Positions 2,842 through 60,187 of a DNA stretch of 64,000 bases are shown in pieces (position 1 is the stretch's first letter; each line of letters opens with the position of its first letter). Location of the stretch: positions 24,354-88,353 of the forward strand of contig CADCNT010000003.1 of the NCBI GenBank assembly GCA_902802905.1. Reading direction: 5' to 3'. The DNA is from an uncultured Erysipelotrichaceae bacterium (GTDB lineage: Bacteria > Bacillota_I > Bacilli_A > RFN20 > CAG-826). The translations under genes and the position numbers were made by a program. The notes under the pieces are model-generated. The model worked only from the letters and a program-made list of their open reading frames with translations, had not been told where the DNA came from and ran no database searches.

Positions 2842-2981
2842 TTGAACTATATTTATAACTTATGTTATATTACTCACGTTGTCGCCTCACTAGCTACAAC
2901 CGCCTAGAAAAGGTTTTATAAAAACCTATGGTTACCTTAATAGCGAGTCCTTAGTGAATTTTAAAAAGAAGGAGGGACATT
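2842..2981 (+). promoter_or_regulatory. rplU operon promoter plus ~100-nt structured leader (possible L21-leader type autoregulatory RNA)
   Basis: TTGAAC (2842-2847), 18-nt spacer, extended -10 TGtTATATT (2863-2871). The leader has a local hairpin AGGTTTT-ATA-AAAACCT and long-range TCACTA/TAGTGA complementarity. Firmicutes carry an L21 leader at this position. Confidence 0.4.
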
Positions 2982-17490: not shown

Positions 17491-17515
17491 AAAATATATA
17501 CTTTGTATATACAAA

Positions 17516-17544
17516 TACTAATCTATTACTAATTTAATACTAAT
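17516..17544 (-). repeat. Phased heptamer array (3 x TACTAAT on the plus strand, 11-bp period)
   Basis: TACTAAT at 17516, 17527 and 17538. It is preceded by the AT hairpin TATATAC-TTT-GTATATA (17495-17511). It lies between the aspS stop and the tkt SD. Confidence 0.85.
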
Positions 17545-20056: not shown

Positions 20057-21199
20057 ATGTACGAATCAGCGCCTATCTTACTAGTAAGTGACATAAACAC
20101 TTACATCAAAAGCGTATTGACCACAGATGAAAGATTGAAATTCGTCCGAGTGAAAGGTGAGATTAGTAATTTCAAAGCCTATCCAAGTGGACATTTTTAT
20201 TTTTCACTTAAAGATCAAAATTCCGTGATTAGCGCCGTGATGTTTGCTAATTACGCAAAGCGTATTGCCTTTTCTCCTAAAAATGGAGATGAAGTAATCG
20301 TGTTAGCTAGTGTCGATGCATACGTTCCTCGTGGTAGTTATAATCTCAACGTCTTCGAAATGGAAGAAGTGGGATTAGGACAACAATTAGTGGAGCTTGA
20401 AAAGCTCAAAAAGCAATTGGCTAGCGAAGGTTTATTTGATGAATCAAGAAAAAGACCAATTAACATCTATCCAAAAGCAATAGGGGTTATCACCGCACCA
20501 AATGGGGCAGCAGTTAGAGATATCGTCACTAACATCAAAAGAAGATATCCAATCGCAGACATTTATGTCTTTCCATCATTAGTGCAAGGTGAACAAGCTC
20601 CTGAGAGACTATTAAAAGCATTTAATAAGTCACAGGAATATGACTTAGATACTTTGATTATTGGCCGTGGTGGTGGCGCTAGCGAAGACTTAAGTGCCTT
20701 CAATGACGAAACATTAGTCAGAGCGGTTGCTAAAAGCAAAATGCCAATTATTGCCGCAGTAGGACACGAAATAGACACGACTTTAATCGACTATATTGCT
20801 GATAAACGTGCTTCTACACCAACTGGTGCGGCTGAACTCGCTACTGTGGATCGAAGAGAAATAGAGCATTTCTTCTCACAATCAACGCTACTTATGGAAC
20901 AAGCACTTTATGAATATGTTGATGAACAAAAAGAGGATATTGCTTCTTTAAAAGAAGAACTCGATGAATCATTAAAAGATTTATTGGATTATCAAAAGCA
21001 AGAAGTGGAAAAATATTCTAAACAACTAGAGATTCTTAATCCAAAAGCAGTCTTATCTAGAGGGTATTCAATTTCTCTAGATGAAAATGGTAAACCAATT
21101 AGGTCGATAAAAGACATAAAAGAGCGTCAACAAATCAAAACTATATTAGAAAATGGTGAATTCACAAGTGAAGTGATTAAAATAGAAGGAGAGAAATAA
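20057..21199 (+). CDS. xseA: Exodeoxyribonuclease VII large subunit
   Basis: N-terminal OB fold (VRVKGEISNFK...SGHFYFSLKD), GRGGGA motif and a coiled-coil tail. Confidence 0.92.
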   Translation: MYESAPILLVSDINTYIKSVLTTDERLKFVRVKGEISNFKAYPSGHFYFSLKDQNSVISAVMFANYAKRIAFSPKNGDEVIVLASVDAYVPRGSYNLNVFEMEEVGLGQQLVELEKLKKQLASEGLFDESRKRPINIYPKAIGVITAPNGAAVRDIVTNIKRRYPIADIYVFPSLVQGEQAPERLLKAFNKSQEYDLDTLIIGRGGGASEDLSAFNDETLVRAVAKSKMPIIAAVGHEIDTTLIDYIADKRASTPTGAAELATVDRREIEHFFSQSTLLMEQALYEYVDEQKEDIASLKEELDESLKDLLDYQKQEVEKYSKQLEILNPKAVLSRGYSISLDENGKPIRSIKDIKERQQIKTILENGEFTSEVIKIEGEK

Positions 21200-21201
21200 C
21201 G

Positions 21202-21396
21202 ATGGAAAAAGAAATCAATTTTGAAAAAGAATTAGAGCGATTAAAAGAAATCGTTTCTTTAATCCAGCAAAAGAATCTCTCTTTAGATGAAAGTTTGAAG
21301 CTTTACGAAGAAGGTTCAAAAATCGTTAAAGTCCTCAACGAAGAATTAGAAAAGGCAGAAAAGAAAGTCGAGAAAGTTATCGATATCGATAAATAA
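21202..21396 (+). CDS. xseB: Exodeoxyribonuclease VII small subunit
   Basis: 64-aa helical protein (FEKELERLKEIV..LSLDESL.LYEEG) immediately after xseA. Confidence 0.9.
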   Translation: MEKEINFEKELERLKEIVSLIQQKNLSLDESLKLYEEGSKIVKVLNEELEKAEKKVEKVIDIDK

Positions 21397-21397
21397 T

Positions 21398-23251
21398 ATG
21401 GCCAAAAAAGAAATCAAGCACTTTGACATTGAGAAAATTGAAAACCCCGAGTTTTTAAAAGGCTTGTCCTATAAAGAACTCGATGTTTTAAGTGACGACA
21501 TTCGTGATTACATTATCGAAATGGTCTCAAGAAACGGTGGGCATTTATCCGCTAACTTAGGCACCATCGACTTCACAATCTCCTTATGTCGTAATTTTGA
21601 TTTTACTAAAGACAAGATTGTCTTCGATGTCGGACACCAATGCTATACATACAAGATTTTAACCGGAAGAAAACTTGACACTTTAAGAAAGAAAGATGGC
21701 ATTAGTGGCTTCCAAAAGATGGACGAATCTCCATATGACCATTTTGAAGCCGGGCATTCATCAACTTCCATTAGTGCGGTTTCTGGAATGGCAATCGCTA
21801 GAGACCTCAAAGGCGAAAAATATGACGTTATTGCCTTTATTGGTGATTCCGCAATCCAAAATGGTTTAGCTTTTGAAGCTTTAAATAACGCAGCCCAAGC
21901 AAATCATAAAGTGATTATCATTTTAAACGATAACGGTATGTCCATCTCCCAACCTGTTGGCGGAATGAGCAAATTATTTAGAAGATTATCCGGTTCCGCA
22001 TTCTACTTAAAAAGTAAAAATGTCTTCCGCCGCATCTTCTGGGTCACTAGATTTGGTAGATGGATATGGGTCAAATTCACTAAGATTAAAAACTGGTTTA
22101 AACGCAAAGTTATTAACTTAACAATTTTTGATAGATTGGGCTTTGACTATATTGGCCCAATAGACGGGCATTACATCCGCCACTTAGATAAAGCCTTAAA
22201 AAGAGCGAAAAAGTCTCCAAAATCGGTTGTTTTGCACATTAAAACCATTAAGGGCAAAGGCTATAGCTATGCTGAAGAAGATGTTGAAGGCGAATGGCAC
22301 GGCGTTGGCAAGTTTAACAAAGAGACTGGTGAGATTGCTATTAAAGACGCAGTGGTCTCTTGGAGTGAGCAGTATAAAGTTCTTTTAAGAAACGAAATGG
22401 AACTCAATCCAAATATCGTTACCATTGTTCCTGCAACTGGGCATGGATCTGACTTAGATTCAATGTTTAAAACATTCCCGACAAGGATGATTGATGTTGG
22501 TATTGCCGAAGAACACGCCTTCACTTTAGCTGGTGGTCTTGCTGCGAGCGGCATCCATCCTGTAGTGTCAATTTATTCCACCTTCTTGCAAAGAAGTTAT
22601 GACGAATTATTCCATGATGTTGCCAGAATGAATTTTGATATGACTATTCTTATTGATAGAGCTGGACTTGTGGGAAGTGATGGAGATACCCATCAAGGTG
22701 TTTATGATGAAGCCTTCTTATACACAATCCCTAATGTCACCATTGCAATGGCGTCAAAAAGCAATGAAGCGCTTTCGTTGATGAAAGAATCTTTGTGCCA
22801 CCATGGTGTATTCGCGATTAGATATCCACGTGAATCGTTCCAAAACAAAGTTGATGAAGTCAAAAAGATTCCTTATGGCACTTGGAAAGTAGAAATTGAA
22901 AGCTCATCAAAAGATACCGCTATCGTTTCTGTTGGTCCAATCACTGTGGGATTAAAAGAAAAACTCTTAGAGTTAAATAAAAACGTGACTTTATATAATG
23001 CGGTCTATGTAAAACCATACGACACCGCTAAGGTCAAAGAGTTACTTAAATTCAAGAAAGTCATCATCTATAACGCTTATGCCACCAAAGAAGGTTTCGC
23101 TAATGCTTTAGTTGCTGATTTAATGGAGCAATCATATGCTGGCGAAGTTATTGTTAAGACTGTTCCAACCATCTTTGTTAAGCAAGCCTCAATTGATGAA
23201 CAAAGGGAAGAATTTGGACTAAGAATCGATGATATCATCGATTTGTTATAA
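21398..23251 (+). CDS. dxs: 1-deoxy-D-xylulose-5-phosphate synthase
   Basis: GGHLSANLG and the GDSAIQNG ThDP motif; transketolase-like domains; 617 aa. Confidence 0.93.
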   Translation: MAKKEIKHFDIEKIENPEFLKGLSYKELDVLSDDIRDYIIEMVSRNGGHLSANLGTIDFTISLCRNFDFTKDKIVFDVGHQCYTYKILTGRKLDTLRKKDGISGFQKMDESPYDHFEAGHSSTSISAVSGMAIARDLKGEKYDVIAFIGDSAIQNGLAFEALNNAAQANHKVIIILNDNGMSISQPVGGMSKLFRRLSGSAFYLKSKNVFRRIFWVTRFGRWIWVKFTKIKNWFKRKVINLTIFDRLGFDYIGPIDGHYIRHLDKALKRAKKSPKSVVLHIKTIKGKGYSYAEEDVEGEWHGVGKFNKETGEIAIKDAVVSWSEQYKVLLRNEMELNPNIVTIVPATGHGSDLDSMFKTFPTRMIDVGIAEEHAFTLAGGLAASGIHPVVSIYSTFLQRSYDELFHDVARMNFDMTILIDRAGLVGSDGDTHQGVYDEAFLYTIPNVTIAMASKSNEALSLMKESLCHHGVFAIRYPRESFQNKVDEVKKIPYGTWKVEIESSSKDTAIVSVGPITVGLKEKLLELNKNVTLYNAVYVKPYDTAKVKELLKFKKVIIYNAYATKEGFANALVADLMEQSYAGEVIVKTVPTIFVKQASIDEQREEFGLRIDDIIDLL

Positions 23252-23269
23252 AATATTTCGATAAATAAG

Positions 23270-23298
23270 TTAACATAATCTATTCGCGCGTTTATAAT
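23270..23298 (+). promoter_or_regulatory. Sigma-A type promoter placing the TSS on the dinB ATG (leaderless mRNA predicted)
   Basis: TTAACA (23270-23275), 17-nt spacer, TATAAT (23293-23298). Only 6 nt separate the -10 from ATG 23305, and there is no SD. Confidence 0.5.
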
Positions 23299-23304
23299 TA
23301 AAAC

Positions 23305-24486
23305 ATGGCAAAAGTTATTGTTCATATTGACTTAAACGCGTTTTTTGTTAGAGCGGAAGAAATTCGTAATCCGGATTTAGAAAACAAAGCTGTCGCTATC
23401 GGGCATTTAGGTAGAGGCGGTATTGTTTCCACTTGCTCTTATGAAGCACGTAAATTTGGGGTGAGAAGTGGAATGCCAATGAATAAAGCGGTGAAGCTAT
23501 GCCCACATTTACTCATTGTTCCACCTGATTATCGTTTTTATATCACCTTGTCACATGAATTCAAAAAATACATCCGCCATATTACTCCGAAAGTAGAATC
23601 CGCTTCCATCGATGAGCTTTTCGCTGACTTTACTGATGTGGTCAAAGGTAAAAGAAATGTTGAGACTTATTTTAGAGAAATCCAGGCTGGATTATATAAA
23701 AAGACCAAACTTAAATGTTCAATTGGTGTTGGGCCTACTAAGTTTTTAGCTAAGATGGCAAGTGATTATCGTAAGCCAATGGGTTTAACCATTATCAGAA
23801 GAAAAGATATTGAAGAGATTTTATATCCTTTACCAATCGAGGATATGTTTGGTGTTGGCAAGAAAAGCGCTCCGAGATTAAGACATATTGGTATTAACAC
23901 AATTGGTGATTTAGCTAAGAAATTAAATGATAATGACCCTACAACCCTTTCCTTGTTAGGAAAAGGAGCAGAAGAGCTCCATAAATGGCTTAAGGGTTAT
24001 GGCTCTGATGAGATTATCACTGAGTATGACGATCCAAAATCAATCGGTAACTCAACTACTTTGGTAAAGGACACATCAGAATATGAGTACATTAAGCAAA
24101 CATTTGAGATTCTTGCTGAAGAAGTATCAATGCGCGCTAAAAAGGAATCGATGATTGGTAGCACTATTCAAATCATGGTAAAAGACACTAATTATCAAGC
24201 ACATAATAAGTCAGTGGCGATTAATCCACCCACAAATAACGCCAAAGATATTTTTACTACTGCCATAAAACTATATGAGAAGAACTATCTCGATATGACC
24301 ATTAGAGCGGTGGGAGTGACTTTACAAAACTTAATTAACATCAAAGATGTTGCTGTGCAAATGACTTTCTTTGATTACGAGATGCACGAAGAAGAAAACA
24401 AAACCAAACTCATCATTAACGAAATCAATCGTAAAATCAAAGGAGCGCCGCTAAAAAGAGCGAGTGAAATCAAAAAGAAATGCTAA
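23305..24486 (+). CDS. dinB: DNA polymerase IV (Y-family)
   Basis: HIDLNAFFVRAEE and SIDELF catalytic motifs; little-finger domain. Confidence 0.92.
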   Translation: MAKVIVHIDLNAFFVRAEEIRNPDLENKAVAIGHLGRGGIVSTCSYEARKFGVRSGMPMNKAVKLCPHLLIVPPDYRFYITLSHEFKKYIRHITPKVESASIDELFADFTDVVKGKRNVETYFREIQAGLYKKTKLKCSIGVGPTKFLAKMASDYRKPMGLTIIRRKDIEEILYPLPIEDMFGVGKKSAPRLRHIGINTIGDLAKKLNDNDPTTLSLLGKGAEELHKWLKGYGSDEIITEYDDPKSIGNSTTLVKDTSEYEYIKQTFEILAEEVSMRAKKESMIGSTIQIMVKDTNYQAHNKSVAINPPTNNAKDIFTTAIKLYEKNYLDMTIRAVGVTLQNLINIKDVAVQMTFFDYEMHEEENKTKLIINEINRKIKGAPLKRASEIKKKC

Positions 24487-25361
24487 TTAATGACGCCGTG
24501 GAATTATTTGCACAATATTTGCTAGTAGAAAAAGGTCTGTCCAAGAAAACGGTGGAAGCCTATCTAGCAGATCTCAAGCAGTTTTTCGCTTACTATAAAG
24601 ACAAGCAAGAAGTTAGTGATTTAAGTCCATATGATTTACAGTCCTTTGTGATTTATGGCTCTAGCATTGGAGTAACACCTGCAACCACATTAAGAAGAGC
24701 GTCTTCTATTAAACAGTTTTATCTCTTTCTAAAGAAAGATGGATATTATGAGGACGAGATTCCTGATATTGAAAGTATTAAAAAACCAAAGCATTTACCA
24801 ACATGTATTTCTGTTGAAGAAGTTGAGGCATTATTGAACGCTCCAAACATGAAATCGTTAAGTGGAATTAGAGATCGCGCTATGCTGGAACTCATGTATG
24901 CAAGCGGACTCCGTGTTAGTGAACTATTAGCGTTAGAACTTGGTAACATCAATCTTAAAAGAGGAATTGTTACTGTATTTGGTAAAGGGGCCAAGGAAAG
25001 AAAAGTACCGATTGGAGACTACGCTTTAGAATATGTAATCAAATATCTAAATGAAGTTAGAGATAAATTCAATGGAAGAAACTCTAAATATCTTTTCTTA
25101 AATAGAAAAGGAAAGCCAATTAGTCGTATATATTTCTTTAAACAAATTAAGAAGTATGCAAAAGAAGTGGGAATTATGGAAGAGATTTCCCCACACACTC
25201 TTAGACACTGCTTTGCTACCCACTTATTAGAAGGTGGAGCGCAGCTAAGAACTGTGCAAGGAATGCTTGGTCACAGCAACATTGCAACTACACAAATCTA
25301 CACTCATGTATCTAGAGAAAGAATTGCCAGTGCATATGATTTGTTAATGAATAAAAAATAG
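24480..25361 (+). CDS. xerD: Tyrosine recombinase XerD/XerC type
   Basis: HTLRHCFATHLL...GHSNIATTQIYTHV catalytic R-H-R-Y motifs. Position upstream of deoB matches Bacillus ripX-drm. Confidence 0.88.
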   Translation: MLINDAVELFAQYLLVEKGLSKKTVEAYLADLKQFFAYYKDKQEVSDLSPYDLQSFVIYGSSIGVTPATTLRRASSIKQFYLFLKKDGYYEDEIPDIESIKKPKHLPTCISVEEVEALLNAPNMKSLSGIRDRAMLELMYASGLRVSELLALELGNINLKRGIVTVFGKGAKERKVPIGDYALEYVIKYLNEVRDKFNGRNSKYLFLNRKGKPISRIYFFKQIKKYAKEVGIMEEISPHTLRHCFATHLLEGGAQLRTVQGMLGHSNIATTQIYTHVSRERIASAYDLLMNKK

Positions 25362-28988: not shown

Positions 28989-29006
28989 ATTAGTAGATAA
29001 TTAGTA
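28989..29006 (+). repeat. Phased heptamer array (2 x ATTAGTA, 11-bp period)
   Basis: ATTAGTA at 28989 and 29000, starting on the nucleotide after the regulator stop codon. The second unit forms the left arm of the terminator stem. Confidence 0.8.
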
Positions 29007-29026
29007 GGTGGAAATCTACTGTTTTT
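29003..29026 (+). terminator. Weak rho-independent terminator of the regulator gene
   Basis: AGTAG-GTGGAAAT-CTACT followed by GTTTTT. Confidence 0.5.
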
Positions 29027-29162
29027 GTGGATAAAAGAGAAATGTCCACAATAAGATAATAATCATTTTGATAATGTAGAAAGTTCGTTCCACATATTTA
29101 GAATTGCATTTTTTATATCGTTTAGTTAACATAATGACAATTATGCGAAGTTATTGTATTTT

Positions 29163-29210: not shown

Positions 29211-30296
29211 CTATTTAAGATATTGATTAAGGCACGCCATCTGTAAATCGTTACGATAATCTATGTTTCTTTTTGTGTAATAATCAATGTTAGATTTTAA
29301 GACTTCTGCAAAACCATCAATTACACTACTTTTTAGTGCATTTATTAGTTCTGTTGAGTCAAATCCACGTGTTGGTTCTATCTTATCAACACAGTGCACT
29401 ATTATTCCAACATCTGTCATATTGCTATTAGCGGTTGTGTGGAACATAATAGCATCCAGTATAACTGGATCATGTATATCAAAGTCTCTTTCAACTAGAT
29501 AAACACCTATAAATTGATGATAAATGGCCGGTGGATAATTCAAATAATCCCTAAAATGCTCTGCCATTACTTCTCTTTGTTCGCTCATTGGCATTTCTTT
29601 TCCAATATCATGTAACAGTGCTGCAATTAGAGCCTTTTTAGCATCTTTTAGATTATTTGCTATAGCAACTTCATAAGATAACTTTGCGGTACTTATAACA
29701 TGTAATAAGCGTTTTTCTGACATATAGCCAGCAATTCTTTGCATAAAGTAGAGACGGTGATCGATGATGTAATCAATTACAGAATCAGGCGTCTCAAGGC
29801 TCTTTAGATTGCGAATATCTGTTGAGCTGACATCAACTTCGCCACCACTAATCTCTTTCATTTTGAATCTTTTGATGTTTTCATCGCTCAATTCTAAATC
29901 GGGGCGTTTAAAGTAAACGATTGTCGCTAATTCCGCCAATTCATCAGCGTCTTTCCACTTGTGGAAGCTGTTAACTTGGTCGGCACCAATTAAAAAATAC
30001 AGTCTAGAATCTTTATAAGATTCTTTGAAGTGTTTGACTGTATCAATCGAATAATTAACTTCTTCTTGTGAGTCAGCCTCGTATCTTGATAGATGAAATC
30101 TCTTTTCACCTTCGATGGCGAGTTGAATCATATTGATTTTGTCTTCAATGGGTGAAGAATCATTTTTCCAAACCGCAATCTTAGCAGGTATGAAAAAAAT
30201 ATCGGCATCTAATTGTTTTGATGCTTCCTTTGCCATATTAATATGGCCGAAATGAATAGGATCAAATGCACCACCAAAAAGAACGATATTTTTCAT
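29211..30296 (-). CDS. nadD: Fused nicotinate-nucleotide adenylyltransferase (NadD) and HD-domain YqeK
   Basis: The N-terminal half has GGAFDPIHFGH (HxGH). The C-terminal half has the HD motif LLHDIGK. The start is placed at MKNIVLFGG (ATG 30296), 1 nt after the yhbY stop, rather than at the track start 30401. Confidence 0.85.
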   Translation of the reverse strand: MKNIVLFGGAFDPIHFGHINMAKEASKQLDADIFFIPAKIAVWKNDSSPIEDKINMIQLAIEGEKRFHLSRYEADSQEEVNYSIDTVKHFKESYKDSRLYFLIGADQVNSFHKWKDADELAELATIVYFKRPDLELSDENIKRFKMKEISGGEVDVSSTDIRNLKSLETPDSVIDYIIDHRLYFMQRIAGYMSEKRLLHVISTAKLSYEVAIANNLKDAKKALIAALLHDIGKEMPMSEQREVMAEHFRDYLNYPPAIYHQFIGVYLVERDFDIHDPVILDAIMFHTTANSNMTDVGIIVHCVDKIEPTRGFDSTELINALKSSVIDGFAEVLKSNIDYYTKRNIDYRNDLQMACLNQYLK

Positions 30297-30297
30297 C

Positions 30298-30588
30298 TTA
30301 TTTAAGTTTGATTTTTGGATTTTCTTTGTTCTTGCGATATAGAACAATGGTTCTTCCCACCACTTGAACGACATCAGCGTGTAATTTTGAAGAGAGATCA
30401 AGTGTTAGTTCCATGATTGGAGTTGTTGAGCTCTTCAAAACTTCAATTTTGATTAATTCTCTAGCAGTTAATGCTTTATCTAATACGTCTAAAAGCGAGT
30501 TTGTGACCTCACTCTTACCAATTTGATATTTTGTTTTGTCTAAGGCAATTATTGCTCGTAATTGCTTCTTTTCGCTTTGTGATAGCAT
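30298..30588 (-). CDS. yhbY: RNA-binding CRM-domain protein YhbY/YqeI
   Basis: 96 aa (LSQSEKKQLRAIA...GRTIVLYR). Position between yqeH and nadD matches Bacillus. Confidence 0.8.
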   Translation of the reverse strand: MLSQSEKKQLRAIIALDKTKYQIGKSEVTNSLLDVLDKALTARELIKIEVLKSSTTPIMELTLDLSSKLHADVVQVVGRTIVLYRKNKENPKIKLK

Positions 30589-32336: not shown

Positions 32337-32363
32337 GAAAAAAGTAGTCAATTATTAACTACT
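32337..32363 (-). terminator. Rho-independent terminator after parC
   Basis: Minus strand: AGTAGT-TAATAATTG-ACTACT followed by TTTTTT. The left arm is the last heptamer unit. Confidence 0.65.
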
Positions 32364-32388
32364 AATCAACTACTAATTTTCTACTATA
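32360..32388 (-). repeat. Phased heptamer array (minus strand TATAGTA, ATTAGTA, ATTAGTA; 11-bp period)
   Basis: Plus strand: TACTAAT at 32360 and 32371, TACTATA at 32382. The AT hairpin ATATAAC-TTT-GTTATAT (32399-32415) lies between the parC stop and the array. Confidence 0.85.
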
Positions 32389-32414
32389 TTTTTAATGTAT
32401 ATAACTTTGTTATA

Positions 32415-37828: not shown

Positions 37829-37857
37829 ATTAGTAATAAATTAGTAGAAAATTAGTA
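37829..37857 (+). repeat. Phased heptamer array (3 x ATTAGTA, 11-bp period)
   Basis: ATTAGTA at 37829, 37840 and 37851, starting 3 nt after the plsY stop and upstream of the plsY terminator. Confidence 0.9.
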
Positions 37858-37882
37858 ATTGATACTAGTTGTGAATTGAATT

Positions 37883-37913
37883 ATCCACATACGAGTGAAA
37901 TGTGGATTTTTTT
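37883..37913 (+). terminator. Rho-independent terminator of plsY
   Basis: ATCCACAT-ACGAGTGAA-ATGTGGAT followed by TTTTTT. Confidence 0.8.
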
Positions 37914-37997
37914 ATGATTGTATCAAATGTTTTTAATTGACTTTACAATCAATTTAAGACTCAAATAAGTAAAAGCACTACTTTTACTATAATTGTA

Positions 37998-39817: not shown

Positions 39818-40867
39818 ATGAAAAGAACAGAAACTAGACAAGTTAAAATCGGTAATTTGTTGATTGGCGGACAAAACAAAGTTGTCATTCAATCGATGTG
39901 CAACATCAAAACAGAGAATTTTCTCGCTGTAAGCGAGCAGATTAATGAATGTGCAAAGATGGGTGCTGAACTCATGCGTGTTTCTGTGATGGATGAAAAA
40001 GACGCTGCCGCCATAAAAGAAATTAAAAAAAGAATATCAATTCCACTAGTGGCTGATATTCATTTTGATTACCGTTTGGCATTATTAGCCATGGAAAACG
40101 GCGTTGATAAAATTAGAATCAATCCTGGAAACATTGGCGATATCGAAAATGTTAAAAAAGTTGTCGATATGGCTAAATCCAAACATATTCCAATTAGAAT
40201 TGGCGTTAACTCAGGATCATTAGATAAAACAATCCACGATTATTCCAGTCAATATACAGCAGAAAAGTTAGTAGCTTCTGCTAAAAAGCACGTTGAGATT
40301 CTTGAGAATCTTGGCTTTTATGACATAGTCATATCTTTAAAAGGTTCAAATATTTTAGAAACCATTGCGGCTTATGAGCTCGCATCAAAAACATTTAAAT
40401 ATCCACTTCATTTAGGAATAACTGAGGCTGGGTTTAAAGAAATATCAATGGTCAGGAGTTCTGCTGGATTAGCCCCTCTTCTTTTAGAAGGAATTGGTGA
40501 TACAATCCGTATTTCCATCTCTGGAGATCCAAAAGATGAAATTCGTGTGTGTAAATTATTGCTCCATGATTGTGGTTTGTATCCTAATTATCCAACTTTA
40601 GTTGCCTGCCCAACTTGTGGAAGAACTCAAGTCAATGTCGAAGAGCTTGCTAGAAAAGTCATGACTTATCTAGAAACAATCAATAAGCCAATTCATGTTG
40701 CTGTCATGGGATGTGTAGTTAACGGACCAGGTGAAGCTAAAAACGCAGACATTGGCATCGCCGGCGGGCATCATGAATATGTTATCTTTAAAAAAGATAA
40801 AGTTATTAAAAAAGTCCCAGAAGCAGAAGCTTTCGAGACTTTAGTTGAAGAGATTAATAAATTCTAA
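39818..40867 (+). CDS. ispG: 4-hydroxy-3-methylbut-2-en-1-yl diphosphate synthase (MEP pathway)
   Basis: RQVKIGNLLIGGQNKVVIQSMCN N-terminus and C-terminal Fe-S cysteines (CPTCGR ... GCVVNGPGE). Confidence 0.92.
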   Translation: MKRTETRQVKIGNLLIGGQNKVVIQSMCNIKTENFLAVSEQINECAKMGAELMRVSVMDEKDAAAIKEIKKRISIPLVADIHFDYRLALLAMENGVDKIRINPGNIGDIENVKKVVDMAKSKHIPIRIGVNSGSLDKTIHDYSSQYTAEKLVASAKKHVEILENLGFYDIVISLKGSNILETIAAYELASKTFKYPLHLGITEAGFKEISMVRSSAGLAPLLLEGIGDTIRISISGDPKDEIRVCKLLLHDCGLYPNYPTLVACPTCGRTQVNVEELARKVMTYLETINKPIHVAVMGCVVNGPGEAKNADIGIAGGHHEYVIFKKDKVIKKVPEAEAFETLVEEINKF

Positions 40868-41745
40868 TCACGCCAATTATCAACGTATTTACCGCTCCTT
40901 AGCATTTCAATTTCTTGCTTATAAGGAGCTTTTTCATTGTAATAAGGTGTTTCAAGAATCATCGGAATTCCTTTTAATAATGGATGATGAACCACATCAT
41001 AGAGAGTTTTAAAGCCTAAATAACCATAGCCAATGTTTTCATGGCGATCTTTATGAGCACCAATTGGGTTCTTAGTGTCGTTGACATGGACCACTAATAA
41101 TCTAGACAAGCCAATCACATCATCAAATTCTTTCAAGACTTTATTAAAGTCTTTGACATCATAGCCAGCGTCAGAGATGTGACATGTATCCAAACATACT
41201 CCCAATCTGTGTTTGTTCTTGCAGTGGTCAATAATCGACGCAATCTCTTGAAAAGAGATGCCAATTTCATGACCTTTTCCTGCCATTGTTTCAAGAGCAA
41301 TCTTAACATTGGTACCATCACATGCCAATGCAACATCTAGTGCCTTTGCTAAAGCAATGATGCCATTCTCTGCACCCATACCAACATGGCTTCCTGGATG
41401 AAGAACGAGGATTTGTGCGCCAAAGCCAGCAGTTCTTTTTAGTTCACTAACAATTGTGTTTATGGACATTTCATACAAATCTGGTCTTGTGTAATTTGCA
41501 GCATTGATAATGTAAGGAGCATGAACAATTAGTTTGCTTTCATCAAATCCAGCTTCTAGTAGAAGCTTTCTCCCCTCTTGAATCTTTAATTCGGAAAGAG
41601 GTTTTCTAAAAGAGTTTTGTGGTGCACCAGTATAGAACATGAACGTGTTAGAGCCATAAGATATAGCTTCTTTAACACTTCCTAAATAAAAGTCAGGAGC
41701 GTTCATGCTGACATGACTACCTAAATATATCCCATCGTTTTTCAT
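40864..41745 (-). CDS. nfo: Endonuclease IV
   Basis: YLGSHVS, HAPYIIN and HxND motifs of the TIM-barrel AP endonuclease. The start is set at MKNDGIYLG (ATG 41745), which has an AGAGGA SD. Confidence 0.9.
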   Translation of the reverse strand: MKNDGIYLGSHVSMNAPDFYLGSVKEAISYGSNTFMFYTGAPQNSFRKPLSELKIQEGRKLLLEAGFDESKLIVHAPYIINAANYTRPDLYEMSINTIVSELKRTAGFGAQILVLHPGSHVGMGAENGIIALAKALDVALACDGTNVKIALETMAGKGHEIGISFQEIASIIDHCKNKHRLGVCLDTCHISDAGYDVKDFNKVLKEFDDVIGLSRLLVVHVNDTKNPIGAHKDRHENIGYGYLGFKTLYDVVHHPLLKGIPMILETPYYNEKAPYKQEIEMLRSGKYVDNWRD

Positions 41746-41781
41746 ATTTTGATATCCTCTTGAATATGTTAACATATTTTT

Positions 41782-42645
41782 ATGCACGTAAGTCTAATAA
41801 AACCTCAAGGATTTTGTTCCGGAGTAACAAAAGCAGTATCAATTGCTAAGCAAGCAAAGAAAGAACACCCAAACGAGAATGTCTATATTTTAGGTATGCT
41901 TGCGCATAATCAAACATTGATTGACGATTTAACTAAAGAAGGACTTATCACATTAAGTGATGAGAATGAAATTAAAGCGTTAGAAAAGTTACAAAAAGGT
42001 GATGTTGTTATTTTTACCGCGCATGGACACAGTGAAAAGGTAGAGCAGAAAGCAAAAGATTTAGGCTTAATTATATACGATGCAACATGCTTTAAAGTGA
42101 AAAGCAATCTCGAGAAGATTAAAGAAGAAATCAACGCTGGACATCAAGTGATTTACATCGGACAAAAGGGTCACAAAGAAACAAATGCAGCGTTATCAGT
42201 TTCAAACAATGTATCATTATATGATACAAAACTACTAATAAACTACTATTTAATTACTGATAAAAATCCTTATGTTATAAACCAAACAACCCTTAATTTT
42301 CAAGAATTAAATAAGCTTCACGAAGATATTTTGAGTCATATTCCAGGTGCTAGAATCGAAAATGAGATATGCGCCGCCACAAGATTAAGACAAGAAGCTG
42401 TCGGCAAAATTGAACGCGATACTGATTTAATCATTATTGTTGGTCATCAAAAATCAAGTAACTCAAATAGATTATTTGAAATTGCGAGCAATCTTTTCCA
42501 TAACGCCACAGTCATTATGGTTAACGATTTAGATGAATTAAAGAAGCATGACATTGAAGCAAAGAAAAAAGCCGCTGTTGTTTCAGGGGCTTCTACTCCA
42601 CAATACGTGGTTGATGAAATATATAAATATTTGCTTAGCAAATAA
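41782..42645 (+). CDS. ispH: 4-hydroxy-3-methylbut-2-enyl diphosphate reductase (MEP pathway)
   Basis: PQGFCSGV, INQTTL and SSNSNRL motifs of IspH/LytB. Confidence 0.92.
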   Translation: MHVSLIKPQGFCSGVTKAVSIAKQAKKEHPNENVYILGMLAHNQTLIDDLTKEGLITLSDENEIKALEKLQKGDVVIFTAHGHSEKVEQKAKDLGLIIYDATCFKVKSNLEKIKEEINAGHQVIYIGQKGHKETNAALSVSNNVSLYDTKLLINYYLITDKNPYVINQTTLNFQELNKLHEDILSHIPGARIENEICAATRLRQEAVGKIERDTDLIIIVGHQKSSNSNRLFEIASNLFHNATVIMVNDLDELKKHDIEAKKKAAVVSGASTPQYVVDEIYKYLLSK

Positions 42646-45387: not shown

Positions 45388-47205
45388 CTATTTGTCTTCG
45401 TCATCATTAGGATTTTTATTCAACATCATTCGTCGATTGTAATCACTGATAATGCGCGCTTTTTCTAATTCACTCTTGCCCTCAAGCGATTGTTTGAGTA
45501 CATCCTCTTCACTAATGCGCTTTCGTTCGCTAAGGATTGTTTCAAGCAAGTTATTCAATAATTCGTCTGTACATTCACCTGGGTGCGTTTCCATGTAAAT
45601 GGCAATCAAATCATTTATGATTTTTTGTTTGTTCTCGATGTCACTTTCTTCAAGTAACATCATAAGGCCAGTGTCATTCATCGCATCATGACTTGCGGCG
45701 TATTCAATGATGTAATTTGCAATTGTACGGTAGATATCATCATAGAATCCTGGCACCTTTTGCTCATAAAAGGCCACTGCAGCTTTGTTTTGGCTCATTT
45801 GGTATAAAAGTTCGCGTTCGGCTGTTAATAGCTTCTGGAGAGCCTTTCTTTCAGGATGGAAGTCCTCGATAACTTCCTTAACTGTAGCAGTTTCCCCACC
45901 ATTAACTTTGTTTTTTGCTTTTTTAACAACGTTACGGATGTCTTCAACATCAAAGCCAGTTGCTTTTGAGAGCTTACGTAAGTACGTATCTAATTCTAAT
46001 TGTTCCTCAATCCTTACTAAGAACGGCAAAAATTCTTTGATTAAGGTTCTTTTTTCTTCGATTGTTTTAAGAGGATTAGATCTTAAATAATAATTTAAGA
46101 CAAAATCCATTTTTGGTAAAAGCTTGTTTAGGTACGCTTCCAAGGCCTCTTTTCCATCTTCGTTTAAGATCTCATCAGGGTCTTTAGAGCTTCCTTGATT
46201 ATCAACAACTACATATTTGAGTCCAGCTTTTGATAATTTTTGCGAAGCTTTCATCATCGCACTTTGTCCTGGCAAATCACCATCAAGACAAAGTCTTATT
46301 TCAACATTAAGCGATCTTAATAATTGAATATGCTCGTCAGTAAGCGCTGTACCCATAGTAGCCACTGCGGCATCAACACCGATTTTACTTAGTGCATACA
46401 CATCCATGAAACCTTCACATATGTAGAGGTAGCCTTTCAACTTAGCGGCACTTTTTGCAATGTGAATGTTATATAAGTTGTTGGTTTTATGAAACAAATA
46501 TGTTTCAGGCGTATTCATATACTTAGCGGTATCGTCATTTACTAATCGACGAGCGCTGAAGCCTATGACATTGCCGTCAATGTCGCAAATTGGGAATATT
46601 ACACGACCTTCATTCATGTCGGTGTATTCACCATTTTTAAGCATTTTAGCGATGCCAGCATTTTCAATTGTTATGATGGAATGTCCTTTCTTTTGCAAGA
46701 ATGCAATTGTGGATTTTCCATCTTTGTAGGCATAGCCTAACTTATACTTATTTCTAATAGAAGCATCTAACTTACGGCTCTCAAAATAATCTAATCCCTC
46801 TTTTCCCTCAGGTGTATTGAGTGCGAACTGATAGTAAAGAGTTAAATCGTGTAAACACTTAAGTATGGCTTCTTTTTTCTCATCCACTTTCTTAGGTTTA
46901 GCGATTGATTCCAAACCTTCTGGGTGATAATTCATGATCTCCGCTACTTTTTTAACAGCTTCTCCAAAGGAGCATTTATCATATTTTTGTACAAATGAGA
47001 TTGCTGTTCCACCAGTACCGCAAACAAAGCATTTAAAGAATTGTTTTTCTGGAGACACAACTAAAGAAGGATTTGTGTCATCATGGAATGGGCAAACTGC
47101 CTTATAGTTCTTACCTTGCTTGATTAAAGGAAGATAAGAAGAGATGACTTGAACAATATCCGCATGTTTTAATACATCTTCAGCTAACGAATTGTTAAAT
47201 GCCAT
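45388..47205 (-). CDS. dnaG: DNA primase
   Basis: Zinc finger CPFHDDTNPSL...CFVCG and TOPRIM EGFMDV. Confidence 0.95.
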   Translation of the reverse strand: MAFNNSLAEDVLKHADIVQVISSYLPLIKQGKNYKAVCPFHDDTNPSLVVSPEKQFFKCFVCGTGGTAISFVQKYDKCSFGEAVKKVAEIMNYHPEGLESIAKPKKVDEKKEAILKCLHDLTLYYQFALNTPEGKEGLDYFESRKLDASIRNKYKLGYAYKDGKSTIAFLQKKGHSIITIENAGIAKMLKNGEYTDMNEGRVIFPICDIDGNVIGFSARRLVNDDTAKYMNTPETYLFHKTNNLYNIHIAKSAAKLKGYLYICEGFMDVYALSKIGVDAAVATMGTALTDEHIQLLRSLNVEIRLCLDGDLPGQSAMMKASQKLSKAGLKYVVVDNQGSSKDPDEILNEDGKEALEAYLNKLLPKMDFVLNYYLRSNPLKTIEEKRTLIKEFLPFLVRIEEQLELDTYLRKLSKATGFDVEDIRNVVKKAKNKVNGGETATVKEVIEDFHPERKALQKLLTAERELLYQMSQNKAAVAFYEQKVPGFYDDIYRTIANYIIEYAASHDAMNDTGLMMLLEESDIENKQKIINDLIAIYMETHPGECTDELLNNLLETILSERKRISEEDVLKQSLEGKSELEKARIISDYNRRMMLNKNPNDDEDK

Positions 47206-47223
47206 ATAATAAAATTATAAACC

Positions 47224-47252
47224 TACTAATTTTTTACTAATTTTATACTAAT
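47224..47252 (-). repeat. Phased heptamer array (3 x ATTAGTA on the minus strand, 11-bp period)
   Basis: Plus strand: TACTAAT at 47224, 47235 and 47246. The unit at 47246 contains the glyQS TAG stop codon. The array fills the glyQS-dnaG spacer. Confidence 0.9.
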
Positions 47253-58649: not shown

Positions 58650-60089
58650 TCACTTTCTTTTAACTGGCGTATAAACGAATTTCTTGCCAACTAAAGTTTT
58701 TTCATAGTATCCATATTCCACTAACTTATCCATCGAAGTTCTGGCGGTTTCATAGACACATTTTACAGCTTTACGATATTGCTCAATTGTGTAGTACATG
58801 CCTAGTGTACAGTGGCGAGCATAGAAGTAAGCTTGACCTTTTTTAAGTCTGACATCTAGTTCAATTAGATGTCTTTCAAGCCTTTGAGCAGTCTTTTCAT
58901 CGAGCTCTTCAGGAATATAAGATACAGCAAGTCCTACTGGTTTTTCAATAACAGGTGAAGTTTTTACTTCAACTTTCTTTTCTTCTACTACTGGAGCAGG
59001 TTCTGGTTTTGCTTCTTCAACAGGTTTTCCTTCAACAACTGGATCTTGATGTACTTCTTCAACAGGTGCAGGAGCTGGTTCAGGTTCTTCTTTTGGCTCT
59101 TCCTCGTCTAACTTAAAGAAATCTTCTTTAATGACTTTGGATGAATACTCCGCTAAAGAATCAAGCATCTTATCAAACTCTTTGTTGATAAATCTTAATG
59201 CAAAGTTTAAGAAATAAGTGACATCAGAACTTGATTGAACGTCATTGAATATCTTTGATATTTCAGTTTCATTTTCATTAAGAATCGCTTCTAAAGGAAT
59301 ATAAATTGCAAAATCTCCAAGTGAATAATGCGCTAACACTGATTTAGCGAATAAAACAGCGATTTCATTATTGAATTCAGGGAATGGTTTAACAAATTGA
59401 ATGTAATAATAGGTAATCAAGGAACGACAAAGTGGGCTAACTGTACTCTTTTCAACAAAGTTGAATAATGAATCCATCATCGATTCGATAAGTTGTGCAG
59501 GTGCGCTCTTATAGACACGGGAGACAACTGCGGCAACATTAGAATCTTCTAAATCTCTTGTACGATAAAATGAGGTTAATTCATTGTTTCCTGTTACTTT
59601 GCTATAGAGTTCCGCTAAGAAATCTTCATTTACGTTATTAACGTAACGTTCCTTAATGTAATTTAATGCGTCAAGGTAATGTGCTAATTTAGGATCTCTA
59701 GCAGAACCAAGAACGACTGCTCTAACATGTTCTTCATCAGATAAAGACATGTTTGCTAAAGCAACATTTTGTAATGACTTAATAATGCATGATTGACGGA
59801 AGTATTGTTTATCGCTATTAACAGAATCAAGTTTGTTTGCTTCGCTAACAACTCTAAGTAATTTCCCTTCAACTGTATTGAGTTTTGCAGAGATTGTTGG
59901 ACATAAACAGACTCTTAATTGATTTTTATCAATTCCTCTAATAGACAAATAATGGCAAAAAGGTGCACGATAAGATAAAATCTTATCCCAAACGCCATCA
60001 ATGATTGAAATCTTTAGTTCTTTAGAAACTTCATTTTTAGTTGCGTAATTGGTTTCAGTAAAACGCACAGCGATATCATTAACACCCAT
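58650..60089 (-). CDS. Fic/Fido-fold-like protein with degenerate active-site motif, Pro/Glu-rich linker and C-terminal winged-helix-like domain
   Basis: The segment FYRTRDL...SPLCRSLITYYYIQFVKPFPEFNNEIAVLFAKSVL aligns to the Fic core (GxFR...hPlxxAaxxHxxFxxIHPFxDGNGRxxR), but HPFxDGNGR is replaced by KPFPEFNNE. A linker EEPKEEPEPAPAPVEE...KPEPAPVVEE follows. The C-terminal ~80 aa look like a wHTH. Confidence 0.5.
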   Translation of the reverse strand: MGVNDIAVRFTETNYATKNEVSKELKISIIDGVWDKILSYRAPFCHYLSIRGIDKNQLRVCLCPTISAKLNTVEGKLLRVVSEANKLDSVNSDKQYFRQSCIIKSLQNVALANMSLSDEEHVRAVVLGSARDPKLAHYLDALNYIKERYVNNVNEDFLAELYSKVTGNNELTSFYRTRDLEDSNVAAVVSRVYKSAPAQLIESMMDSLFNFVEKSTVSPLCRSLITYYYIQFVKPFPEFNNEIAVLFAKSVLAHYSLGDFAIYIPLEAILNENETEISKIFNDVQSSSDVTYFLNFALRFINKEFDKMLDSLAEYSSKVIKEDFFKLDEEEPKEEPEPAPAPVEEVHQDPVVEGKPVEEAKPEPAPVVEEKKVEVKTSPVIEKPVGLAVSYIPEELDEKTAQRLERHLIELDVRLKKGQAYFYARHCTLGMYYTIEQYRKAVKCVYETARTSMDKLVEYGYYEKTLVGKKFVYTPVKRK

Positions 60090-60141: not shown

Positions 60142-60157
60142 TACTAAAACTAAAAAC

Positions 60158-60187
60158 CTACTAATTTTATACCAATTATTTATTAAT
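60158..60187 (-). repeat. Degenerate phased heptamer array at the lepA stop
   Basis: Plus strand: TACTAAT (60158), TACCAAT (60169), TATTAAT (60181, containing the lepA TAA stop). Spacings are 11 and 12 bp. Confidence 0.6.

Follow-up and report, generated by a model that had tools for sequence, protein, structure and literature searches.

At the 3' end of glyQS in an uncultured Erysipelotrichaceae bacterium, three copies of the heptamer ATTAGTA succeed one another on the minus strand at intervals of exactly 11 bp (47224..47252; units at 47224, 47235 and 47246). A first-pass annotation, made from the sequence alone, had reported this architecture at six sites. What do such arrays do, and why do they lie where they lie? 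We analyzed the 64-kb stretch of DNA that contains them (the window; 53 called genes), its flanks and related genomes. The arrays and their clustering around the recombination site dif suggest an undescribed terminus-marking element in uncultured gut and rumen Bacilli.

Seven arrays in phase and the genes around them

ATTAGTA occurs 20 times in the 64-kb window, where 11.9 copies are expected, and 13 of the 20 lie exactly 11 bp from another copy. Eight exact in-register pairs were found versus none in 100 dinucleotide-preserving shuffles, which bears out the earlier claim that copies in register exceed chance. The claimed period is also exact: when all spacings from 5 to 44 nt were scanned, exact pairs occurred at 11 (eight times) and 22 (three times) only. 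Using a position-weight matrix built from 42 arrays (null maximum 11.9 bits), we found exactly seven window loci above the null maximum, with three-unit arrays scoring 28–40 bits. They comprise the six sites known from the annotation, at which the exact units were found in place, and a seventh at 42233–42261. Each of the seven contains 2–4 units with an exact 11-bp period. A chance origin of the arrays is excluded. The profile of the 42 arrays defines the unit as the 11-mer A-T-T-A-G-T-A-D-W-W-A, which is nearly free of C; at spacer positions 9 and 10, G or C is found in just 7 of 190 cases.

The gene identities at the arrays agree with NCBIfam and Pfam. The glyQS–dnaG array (− strand, 38.6 bits) is made of three perfect units. 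The TAG stop of glyQS lies within the first unit, and the ATG of dnaG, a start with no Shine-Dalgarno sequence, lies 18 nt past the last. An AT hairpin, TATAAT-ttt-ATTATA (47205..47219, − strand), ends on the A of this ATG. Three perfect units also form the plsY array (37829..37857, + strand, 40.3 bits; units at 37829, 37840 and 37851), which is sense to plsY, begins 3 nt past its TAA stop and is followed by the plsY terminator, ATCCACA...TGTGGAT with T7 (37883..37914, + strand; seen in the sequence and by RNA folding). The aspS–tkt array (17516..17544, − strand, 35.6 bits; units at 17516, 17527 and 17538) is likewise perfect and is antisense to both genes. As the annotation had described, it is inverted and lies beside the AT hairpin TATATAC-ttt-GTATATA (17495..17511, − strand; sequence and RNA folding). 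The order on the minus strand is array, hairpin and T-rich run.

The array after parC (32360..32388, − strand, 30.2 bits) reads TATAGTA, ATTAGTA, ATTAGTA, with exact heptamers starting at 32360 and 32371 and TATAGTA at 32382. The TGA stop of parC is 26 nt upstream; directly after the stop, and thus between it and the array, is the AT hairpin TATAAC-aaa-GTTATA (32400..32414, − strand). The last unit of the array overlaps the terminator hairpin AGTAGTTAA-taa-TTGACTACT with T7 (32343..32363, − strand). Similarly, the last unit of a two-unit array directly after the TAA of a Crp-like gene (28989..29006, + strand; units at 28989 and 29000) provides the 5' arm of the hairpin TAGTAGGT-ggaa-ATCTACTG, which leads into a T-run (29002..29026, + strand). 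RNA folding upholds the observation that the last unit doubles as the left arm of the terminator stem at 29002 and 32343, a T-run following in both cases.

The lepA array is degenerate, with four units, ATTAATA, ATTGGTA, ATTAGTA and TTTAGTT (60148..60187, − strand, 28.7 bits), and the TAA stop of lepA lies within ATTAATA. The annotation had placed a degenerate set at 60158, 60169 and 60181. The set is real, but the first two starts were off by one; the true starts are 60159 (exact ATTAGTA), 60170 (ATTGGTA) and 60181 (ATTAATA). Read in the sequence, the relations between arrays and stop codons at glyQS, lepA, the Crp-like gene, plsY and parC are as the annotation had given them.

The seventh array (42233..42261, − strand, 32.7 bits; ATCAGTA, AATAGTA, ATTAGTA) lies antisense within the coding sequence of ispH, with the hairpin GTATCAT-ata-ATGATAC and then a T-rich run directly 3' of it (42211..42227, − strand). 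We compared five ispH orthologues, using only codons with a conserved amino acid. The fraction of identical codons is 0.71–0.80 in the array stretch versus about 0.25 (range 0–0.5) elsewhere in the gene, and the constraint spans the hairpin as well as the array. The unit whose TAA would be in frame reads TAT or CAA. Therefore, the array is held as near to consensus as the reading frame allows.

A perfect array is impossible inside any ORF, because it carries stops in all six frames. Specifically, 11 is 2 mod 3, so that three units place TAG in the three frames of one strand and TAA in the three frames of the other. The annotation had this arithmetic right and proposed from it that the arrays act as a six-frame stop cassette; as such a cassette, or as an unstructured spacer, they would serve only to release ribosomes in any frame before a terminator or the next gene. 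Most arrays indeed have three units, and 70% of units run on as TAG-TAG or TAG-TAA. But seven conserved bases and a fixed 11-nt period exceed what stop codons need, 47 of the 53 called window genes have no array, arrays next to dif often have just two units, and the clustering of arrays at dif is left without an account. We consider a pure stop cassette or spacer very improbable. The stop property is better read as the cause of the exclusion of arrays from ORFs and of their abutment on stop codons: arrays abut stop codons because six-frame stops bar them from ORFs and the ORFs of a compact genome run up to them. The arrays offer a clean natural case in which six-frame stop content dictates where a motif can live.

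Conservation and turnover in relatives

We scanned one genome per species for three exact units; matches found by this pattern are perfect by construction. The matches listed are of two types. The first consists of near-identical 11-mer tandems, ATTAGTA[GT]GTG, in Paludibacteraceae and other Bacteroidales. The second consists of arrays with variable A/T-rich spacers in metagenome-assembled genomes (MAGs) of uncultured Bacilli, Erysipelotrichaceae, Mollicutes or Bacillales with 25–37% G+C. The array-bearing relatives are MAGs from rumen and gut.

To avoid the bias of the pattern, we fetched orthologous loci by DnaG and transketolase homologues (73–88% identity). In the loci retrieved in this way, arrays occur at the glyQS–dnaG and aspS–tkt junctions and downstream of plsY and of the Crp-like gene. 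They keep the 11-nt register but not the spacers, and one-base variants (ACTAGTA, AATAGTA, ATTAGTT) turn up occasionally. Because heptamers and register persist while spacers change, both the heptamers and their phase are under purifying selection. Absence from the orthologous positions of close relatives, which the annotation had named as a ground for doubt, is thus the opposite of what these loci contain.

Arrays might also arise neutrally, by tandem duplication through microsatellite-like slippage, or be left behind by a small mobile element. Most of the other three-unit matches listed from metagenomes and viral contigs are true 11-mer tandems with identical spacers, the Paludibacteraceae arrays are near-identical tandems as well, and the matches listed from metagenome and viral scans were, outside the clade, almost only true tandem repeats. 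Arrays of the clade differ from these in that spacers vary within arrays and between orthologues, also at loci fetched without the pattern, while heptamers and register are kept at 57–88% protein identity. Among the matches listed, true tandem versions were found only in unrelated taxa and viruses. Neither inverted ends, target duplications nor a nearby transposase accompany the arrays, and we regard this origin as hardly credible. The arrays are unlike REP/BIME elements, which are many-copy units of imperfectly palindromic form; 79 kb of this genome contains only seven arrays of non-palindromic units, and few are listed elsewhere.

The glyQS–dnaG array is orthologous in nine other genomes, three of which were retrieved without the pattern. 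An array after plsY is also found in relatives L116, L053, L115, L159, L027, L178, L241, L243 and L245. The aspS–tkt array keeps its orientation, with degenerate units, in L274–L276. The parC array has orthologues in L116, L177 and L188 and is lost in more distant relatives. An array at xseB is perfect in L121, L217, L104, L136 and others, has the variant first unit TATAGTA in L276, and is absent from the window, L274 and L275. Arrays thus turn over at single junctions (xseB, parC, aspS), and the regional set persists.

No variable-spacer array was among the matches listed from 2.9 million viral contigs, so we rejected a phage origin. The same scan indicates that the array is not a general expression signal, a point in favor of recognition on DNA. 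No Rfam family matched at any array; the sole Rfam match in the window is an L21 leader at 2888–2961. A literature search with ATTAGTA, TACTAAT and the combination of heptamer, 11-bp period and stop codons returned nothing matching, in line with the annotation, which was aware of no described element of this form.

The nearest published analogue in form is a family of direct repeats of the heptamer TAACTGA in Beggiatoaceae, cyanobacteria and Bacteroidetes, which are intergenic, occur in 2–6 copies with one preferred orientation, provide stops in all frames and often end 1 nt ahead of a start codon without ribosome-binding site (PMC4679880). The TAACTGA repeats are contiguous (period 7), number about 170 sets per genome, are anchored at start codons and have no known function (PMC4679880). 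By comparison, the ATTAGTA arrays have period 11 and variable spacers, number a handful per genome, are anchored at stop codons and at dif, and cluster at the latter.

The replication terminus and dif

GC skew and AT skew change sign at 28–30 kb of the window, and genes run rightward before this point and leftward after it. The B. subtilis dif sequence as query gave no match in the window. With a looser XerD-arm pattern, a dif was found between the convergent Crp-like and nadD genes, right where GC skew and coding strand change over. The site, ACTTCGCATAA-ttgtca-TTATGTTAACT (29124..29151, − strand), has the XerC arm, 6-bp spacer and XerD arm expected of a canonical XerCD dif, and the xerD gene lies about 4 kb away (24480–25361). 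Gene convergence, a maximum of the cumulative GC skew and dif together identify the region as the terminus, not the origin.

On these grounds we rejected an origin of replication, a candidate because of two perfect DnaA-box 9-mers by the arrays. The first (TGTGGATAA on the + strand; 29026..29034, − strand) is 98 bp from dif and belongs to a second hairpin; a similar box is found 82–98 bp from dif in six of the eight genomes with dif described below. The window's other perfect 9-mer (37881–37889) is inside the plsY terminator. DnaA boxes are mostly arms of terminator hairpins here, and CCACA/TGTGG stems recur in terminators of the genome.

The weight-matrix scan spanned 79 kb of one genome, namely the window plus 7 kb to its left and 8 kb to its right. 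Arrays are found only between 17.5 and 60.2 kb, all seven between −12 and +31 kb of dif, and none in 36 kb of flanks, which include the first 17 kb of the window, the 7 kb further left and the 8 kb further right. Elsewhere, among the matches listed from genomes and metagenomes, about 23 of 28 variable-spacer arrays fall at orthologues of window genes (glyQS 7, plsY 6, xseB 8, parC 2, deoB 2); the remaining ones listed are at the dcw cluster, after groEL, before purT and in one context without assignment. Were the array a signal of gene ends in general, distributed over 1.5–2 Mb of genome (an assumed size), only a few per cent would be expected at such orthologues. The annotation's placement of arrays at gene 3' ends therefore holds as to stop codons, but not as a general feature of gene ends, since the arrays are few and clustered around dif.

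Seven other loci also have a dif next to nadD, which, with the window, makes eight genomes with dif. In all eight, an array of 2–4 units lies on the XerD-arm side and is directed at dif. The units start 144 to 101 bp from the XerD arm, and in every genome one unit starts at 120–124 bp; in the window, the two starts are at 135 and 124 bp. What lies upstream of this array varies: the Crp-like gene, deoB, an ABC permease or some other gene. It is dif that the array follows, not a gene.

This arrangement resembles that of Xer accessory sequences. In cer (with ArgR/PepA) and psi (with ArcA/PepA), a protein-binding region lies about 100–180 bp from the recombination core, and ArcA, which binds direct repeats, is of the OmpR type. 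Similarly, the array lies 100–140 bp from dif, at a set distance, in 8/8 genomes. However, cer and psi belong to plasmids and have their accessory DNA next to the XerC arm, whereas this dif is chromosomal and its array flanks the XerD arm. Six further arrays, at 3–31 kb from dif, have no account in cer/psi-type accessory sequences.

The arrays also resemble matS, the target of MatP, in being a few specific sites confined to a dif-centered terminus region. The likeness ends there. The matS site (GTGACRNYGTCAC) is a 13-bp palindrome that is bound by a dimer, has no polarity and in E. coli spans about 800 kb; the units of the arrays are ATTAGTA direct repeats, not palindromes. MatP is, to our knowledge, not known in Firmicutes.

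Because the units are directional, the orientation of each array relative to dif can be read. Five arrays point towards dif, namely those at dif itself (−0.12 kb), after parC (+3.2 kb, where it occupies the first intergenic gap on the right-hand side of dif), within ispH (+13.1 kb), at glyQS–dnaG (+18.1 kb) and at lepA (+31 kb); two point away, at aspS–tkt (−11.6 kb) and plsY (+8.7 kb). Ter sites, bound by RTP in B. subtilis and Tus in E. coli, are also polar, number about 7–10 around the terminus and often lie at gene ends, and the B. subtilis Ter consensus contains ACTAA-like cores. By analogy, the arrays could form a replication fork trap whose polar sites let forks enter the dif zone and keep them from leaving it. 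The arrays flank dif, the nearest on either side being at −0.12 and +3.2 kb; like five of the seven in the window, the arrays that relatives have at xseB and deoB point at dif; and a head-to-tail protein array would be intrinsically polar. However, the plsY array, the most deeply conserved, and the aspS array, also conserved, face incoming forks, an orientation wrong for a trap. The parC (−) and plsY (+) arrays are opposed, and if both blocked forks, the 5.4 kb between them would be unreplicable. We know of no such orientation exceptions in the Ter traps of E. coli and B. subtilis, and Ter sites are not arrays of three heptads with an 11-bp period. A fork trap is therefore unlikely.

KOPS and SRS are, like the arrays, polar sequences converging on dif. 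They are single G-rich 7–8-mers skewed genome-wide, whereas singleton ATTAGTA is rare and shows no marked skew: it occurs only seven times in 79 kb, five times towards dif and twice away (same-composition heptamers, 53%), with mixed orientations in relatives. We rejected a KOPS-like skew of single heptamers on these counts.

DNA or RNA as the target

We tentatively favor the reading, at somewhat less than an even chance, that the arrays are phased binding sites on double-stranded DNA for a putative protein and mark the replication-terminus region. The 11-bp unit, with seven conserved bases and an A/T-only spacer, would give one unit per helical turn and so align all units on one helical face, where a sequence-specific protein could bind head-to-tail as a 2–4-mer. 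The first-pass suggestion of a protein contacting one helical face fits this 7+4 unit well. About seven such sites would lie between −12 and +31 kb of dif, with one held about 100–140 bp from the XerD arm in the manner of an accessory site, and their likely role would be to organize or label terminus DNA for chromosome-dimer resolution or segregation. A perfect array would sit only between genes, with the ORFs of the compact genome running up to it, and a DNA element would therefore explain the abutment on stop codons without invoking translation. The arrays, their conservation and unit architecture, dif, the clustering and the placement of an array beside dif are observed. We infer a DNA rather than an RNA target, as well as the kind of binder and the function, and favor DNA because it accounts for the clustering around dif and for the fixed distance to the XerD arm.

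The kind of binder is suggested by PhoB/OmpR-type winged-helix proteins, which bind boxes of 7+4 form head-to-tail on one face of the helix. Like the pho box, the arrays are tandem direct repeats of seven bases with a 4-bp A/T-rich spacer and an 11-bp period. The two differ in placement. PhoB/OmpR boxes take over the position of the −35 element in promoters, whereas the arrays sit after stops, in convergent spacers or 1–23 nt before an ATG; some are 1–5 nt from a start codon, and none was found in a divergent promoter region.

In its more specific form, which we think quite possible though short of probable, this reduced-genome lineage of uncultured Bacilli would have a terminus-marking system in which a putative protein polymerizes head-to-tail at about seven sites within about 30 kb of dif, one of them about 125 bp from the XerD arm. 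If so, the array would be a new cis element that couples to dimer resolution or terminus segregation, possibly with insulation from transcription, and that takes the place of matS/MatP, Ter/RTP or the plasmid accessory sequences of model bacteria.

The main rival, already raised in the annotation as a 3'-UTR RNA motif, is an element recognized in the transcript. Three phased AUUAGUA motifs in a C-free, unstructured stretch directly after the stop might be bound by a putative oligomeric RNA-binding protein; this we regard as possible but on the doubtful side. With similar doubt, the bound protein might modulate a weak AT-rich terminator hairpin or the Shine-Dalgarno-less start of the next gene, by a logic like that of HutP or TRAP, and attenuation between glyQS and dnaG, parC and yqeG, or xseB and dxs or dinB would be conceivable, if not probable, examples. 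HutP binds three UAG per face, and both HutP and TRAP recognize repeated UAG/GAG motifs in single-stranded RNA that overlaps a terminator arm. However, their periods are 7 (HutP) and 5–6 (TRAP), with 4-nt or 2–3-nt spacers, in the 5' leader of one operon, while the UAGs of the arrays are 11 nt apart and lie at the 3' ends of unrelated genes.

The position of the arrays in transcripts speaks for RNA and counts against DNA. At about 10 of 12 independent junctions, the array runs in the sense direction of the gene upstream. All arrays lie 3' of the stop, in RNA that is transcribed but not translated, and most immediately precede a hairpin: specifically, they lie 0–35 nt 5' of a hairpin and U-run, or 1–23 nt 5' of an ATG without Shine-Dalgarno sequence (dnaG in ten genomes, dxs, dinB, yqeG and purT). 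No ORF enters unit 2 or 3. At the Crp-like gene and parC, and in L045, L116 and L177, the terminator takes its 5' arm from the last unit, so that binding and hairpin formation would exclude each other. Pairing in the AT hairpins is kept through compensatory changes: the closing pair of the dnaG hairpin is U-A, C-G or A-U in different species, and TATATAC-ttt-GTATATA at aspS–tkt is TATAAAC-aga-GTTTATA in L276. The antisense modules at aspS–tkt and within ispH keep the order of array, hairpin and U-rich run on their own strand, and the constraint within ispH includes the hairpin. An RNA-level element predicts the transcribed placement and the hairpins more naturally than does a DNA site. These facts keep an RNA-level or co-transcriptional function alive, and hairpins and arrays may work together.

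On the other hand, recognition of RNA accounts neither for the location of nearly all arrays no more than about 30 kb from dif nor for the constant spacing from the XerD arm when four different genes lie upstream. The would-be target genes share no function, the A/T-only spacer and exact 11-unit period are typical of DNA recognition, many of the hairpins are just six A-U pairs and barely stable on RNA folding, and Rfam has no matching family. The DNA reading, for its part, has two further difficulties: the polarity towards dif holds for only five of seven arrays, both exceptions being perfect and conserved, and the arrays at the dcw cluster, after groEL and before purT had no dif in the 5–8 kb of sequence searched. 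Polarity cannot decide between the two. An orientation towards dif is seen in 5/7 arrays of the window, and so is one in the sense of the local gene; with the xseB array of relatives added, either rule fits six of eight positions, because genes are co-oriented with replication.

Taken across all these systems, we rate the element as outside every described kind, since in no family are all the defining features present. Beyond MatP and Tus of E. coli and RTP and the XerD unloading sites of Bacillus, little is known of the marking and handling of bacterial termini. The element is compact, easily recognized, deeply conserved and tied to dif, in bacteria known only from metagenomes. The 33-bp array provides a sequence handle, as bait, for the binding protein, allows a test of whether an accessory nucleoprotein complex takes part in dimer resolution, and can locate the terminus in fragmented MAGs. 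If the RNA reading is true, the arrays would be a new class of 3'-UTR attenuator.

Two genes next to arrays were considered as the binder and rejected. The product of the Crp-like gene is a cNMP-binding/HTH protein of ordinary type, and L034, L047 and L166 lack the gene next to dif; the 479-aa gene after lepA encodes a degenerate Fic-like protein. A leaderless dnaG promoter, suggested by TATAAT 7–9 nt from the ATG, was also rejected as the main reading: no −35 element accompanies the hexamer, which elsewhere reads TATAAC or TATAAA opposite a partner changed to match, and a promoter of this kind does not fit at dxs and dinB either. The 15-mer of the AT hairpin after parC has an identical copy at the start of dnaG in L040 and L041.

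Single and tandem copies of the heptamer

ATTAGTA and its complement TACTAAT are rare outside the arrays (two to four units at an exact 11-bp period). Seven singletons are found in the 79 kb made up of the window and the flanking DNA of its own genome (L247 and L248), whereas heptamers with this base composition average about 24, and the stop codons that the heptamer supplies on both strands account for this rarity only in part. Among loci L001–L119, many near-identical 11-mer tandems, ATTAGTA[GT]GTG, are present in MAGs of Paludibacteraceae and other Bacteroidales, with 3–8 copies per array and up to nine or more loci per MAG (for example, L024 145–206, L113, and L009). All of these tandems are intergenic, and several terminate in ...GGTTATAATTGGNATCATC. 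Although they have the heptamer and the period in common with the Bacilli arrays, they are a repeat of a different kind.

DnaA boxes and XerD-arm copies

The window contains only two perfect DnaA-box 9-mers (29026–29034 and 37881–37889), both located no more than 60 nt downstream of an array. In relatives, a DnaA box is found at L047 2731, and boxes lie near dif, the XerCD site, in L274–L276. A TGTGGATAA-like box is positioned 82–98 bp from dif in six of eight genomes; in L274, three boxes occur within 50 bp. Because most of the DnaA boxes near arrays and dif form arms of terminator hairpins, their presence there may be incidental.

The 11-mer of the dif XerD arm, TTATGTTAACT, has a second exact copy in the dxs-dinB spacer (23268–23278, minus strand), upstream of the dinB-xerD genes. 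Corresponding copies in relatives are found at L274 15706, L275 15731, and L047 6252. The copy co-varies with the dif arm, and in L047 both read TTATGTAAAGT. The dxs-dinB copy may be a XerD half-site for autoregulation, or a site of the SMC-unloading type.

Gene junctions and overlaps

In the window (47203–47223) and in L019, L038, L040, L041, L099, L142, L241, L243, and L245, dnaG lacks a Shine-Dalgarno sequence. The A of the dnaG ATG is the last base of a 5–6-bp AT hairpin, and the closing pair of this hairpin shows compensatory changes between species. The arrangement looks like a built-in down-regulation of primase translation. The xseB/dxs junction in the window (within 21195–21400) reads TAAtATG, without a ribosome-binding site. 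In relatives, a 30–60-nt insert with a full array separates the same xseB stop and dxs start, and still terminates in ...ATTAGTAtATG (L121 3800–3870, L217, and L276 13827–13865).

In the ispG-ispH region (40864–42645), plus-strand ispH overlaps minus-strand neighbours at either end (41782–41787 and 42635–42645), while plus-strand ispG overlaps the 3' end of a minus-strand AP endonuclease gene (40864–40867). Transcripts that read through from the rpoD-trmK-nif3 operon would therefore extend antisense into ispH, the gene that carries the embedded array and hairpin.

Other genes and RNA elements

The minus-strand gene after the lepA array (58650–60089) encodes a 479-aa protein that has no match in Pfam or NCBIfam and weakly resembles members of the Fic family (E = 3e-8 with PDB 4rgl). 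On visual inspection, the protein has a Pro/Glu-rich linker and a putative winged-helix C-terminus. A ribosomal protein L21 leader (2888–2961, plus strand; Rfam RF00559, 40.9 bits) lies upstream of rplU. Finally, a single ORF of 396 aa (29211–30401, minus strand) is a nadD-yqeK fusion, joining nicotinate-nucleotide adenylyltransferase to an HD-domain Ap4A hydrolase.
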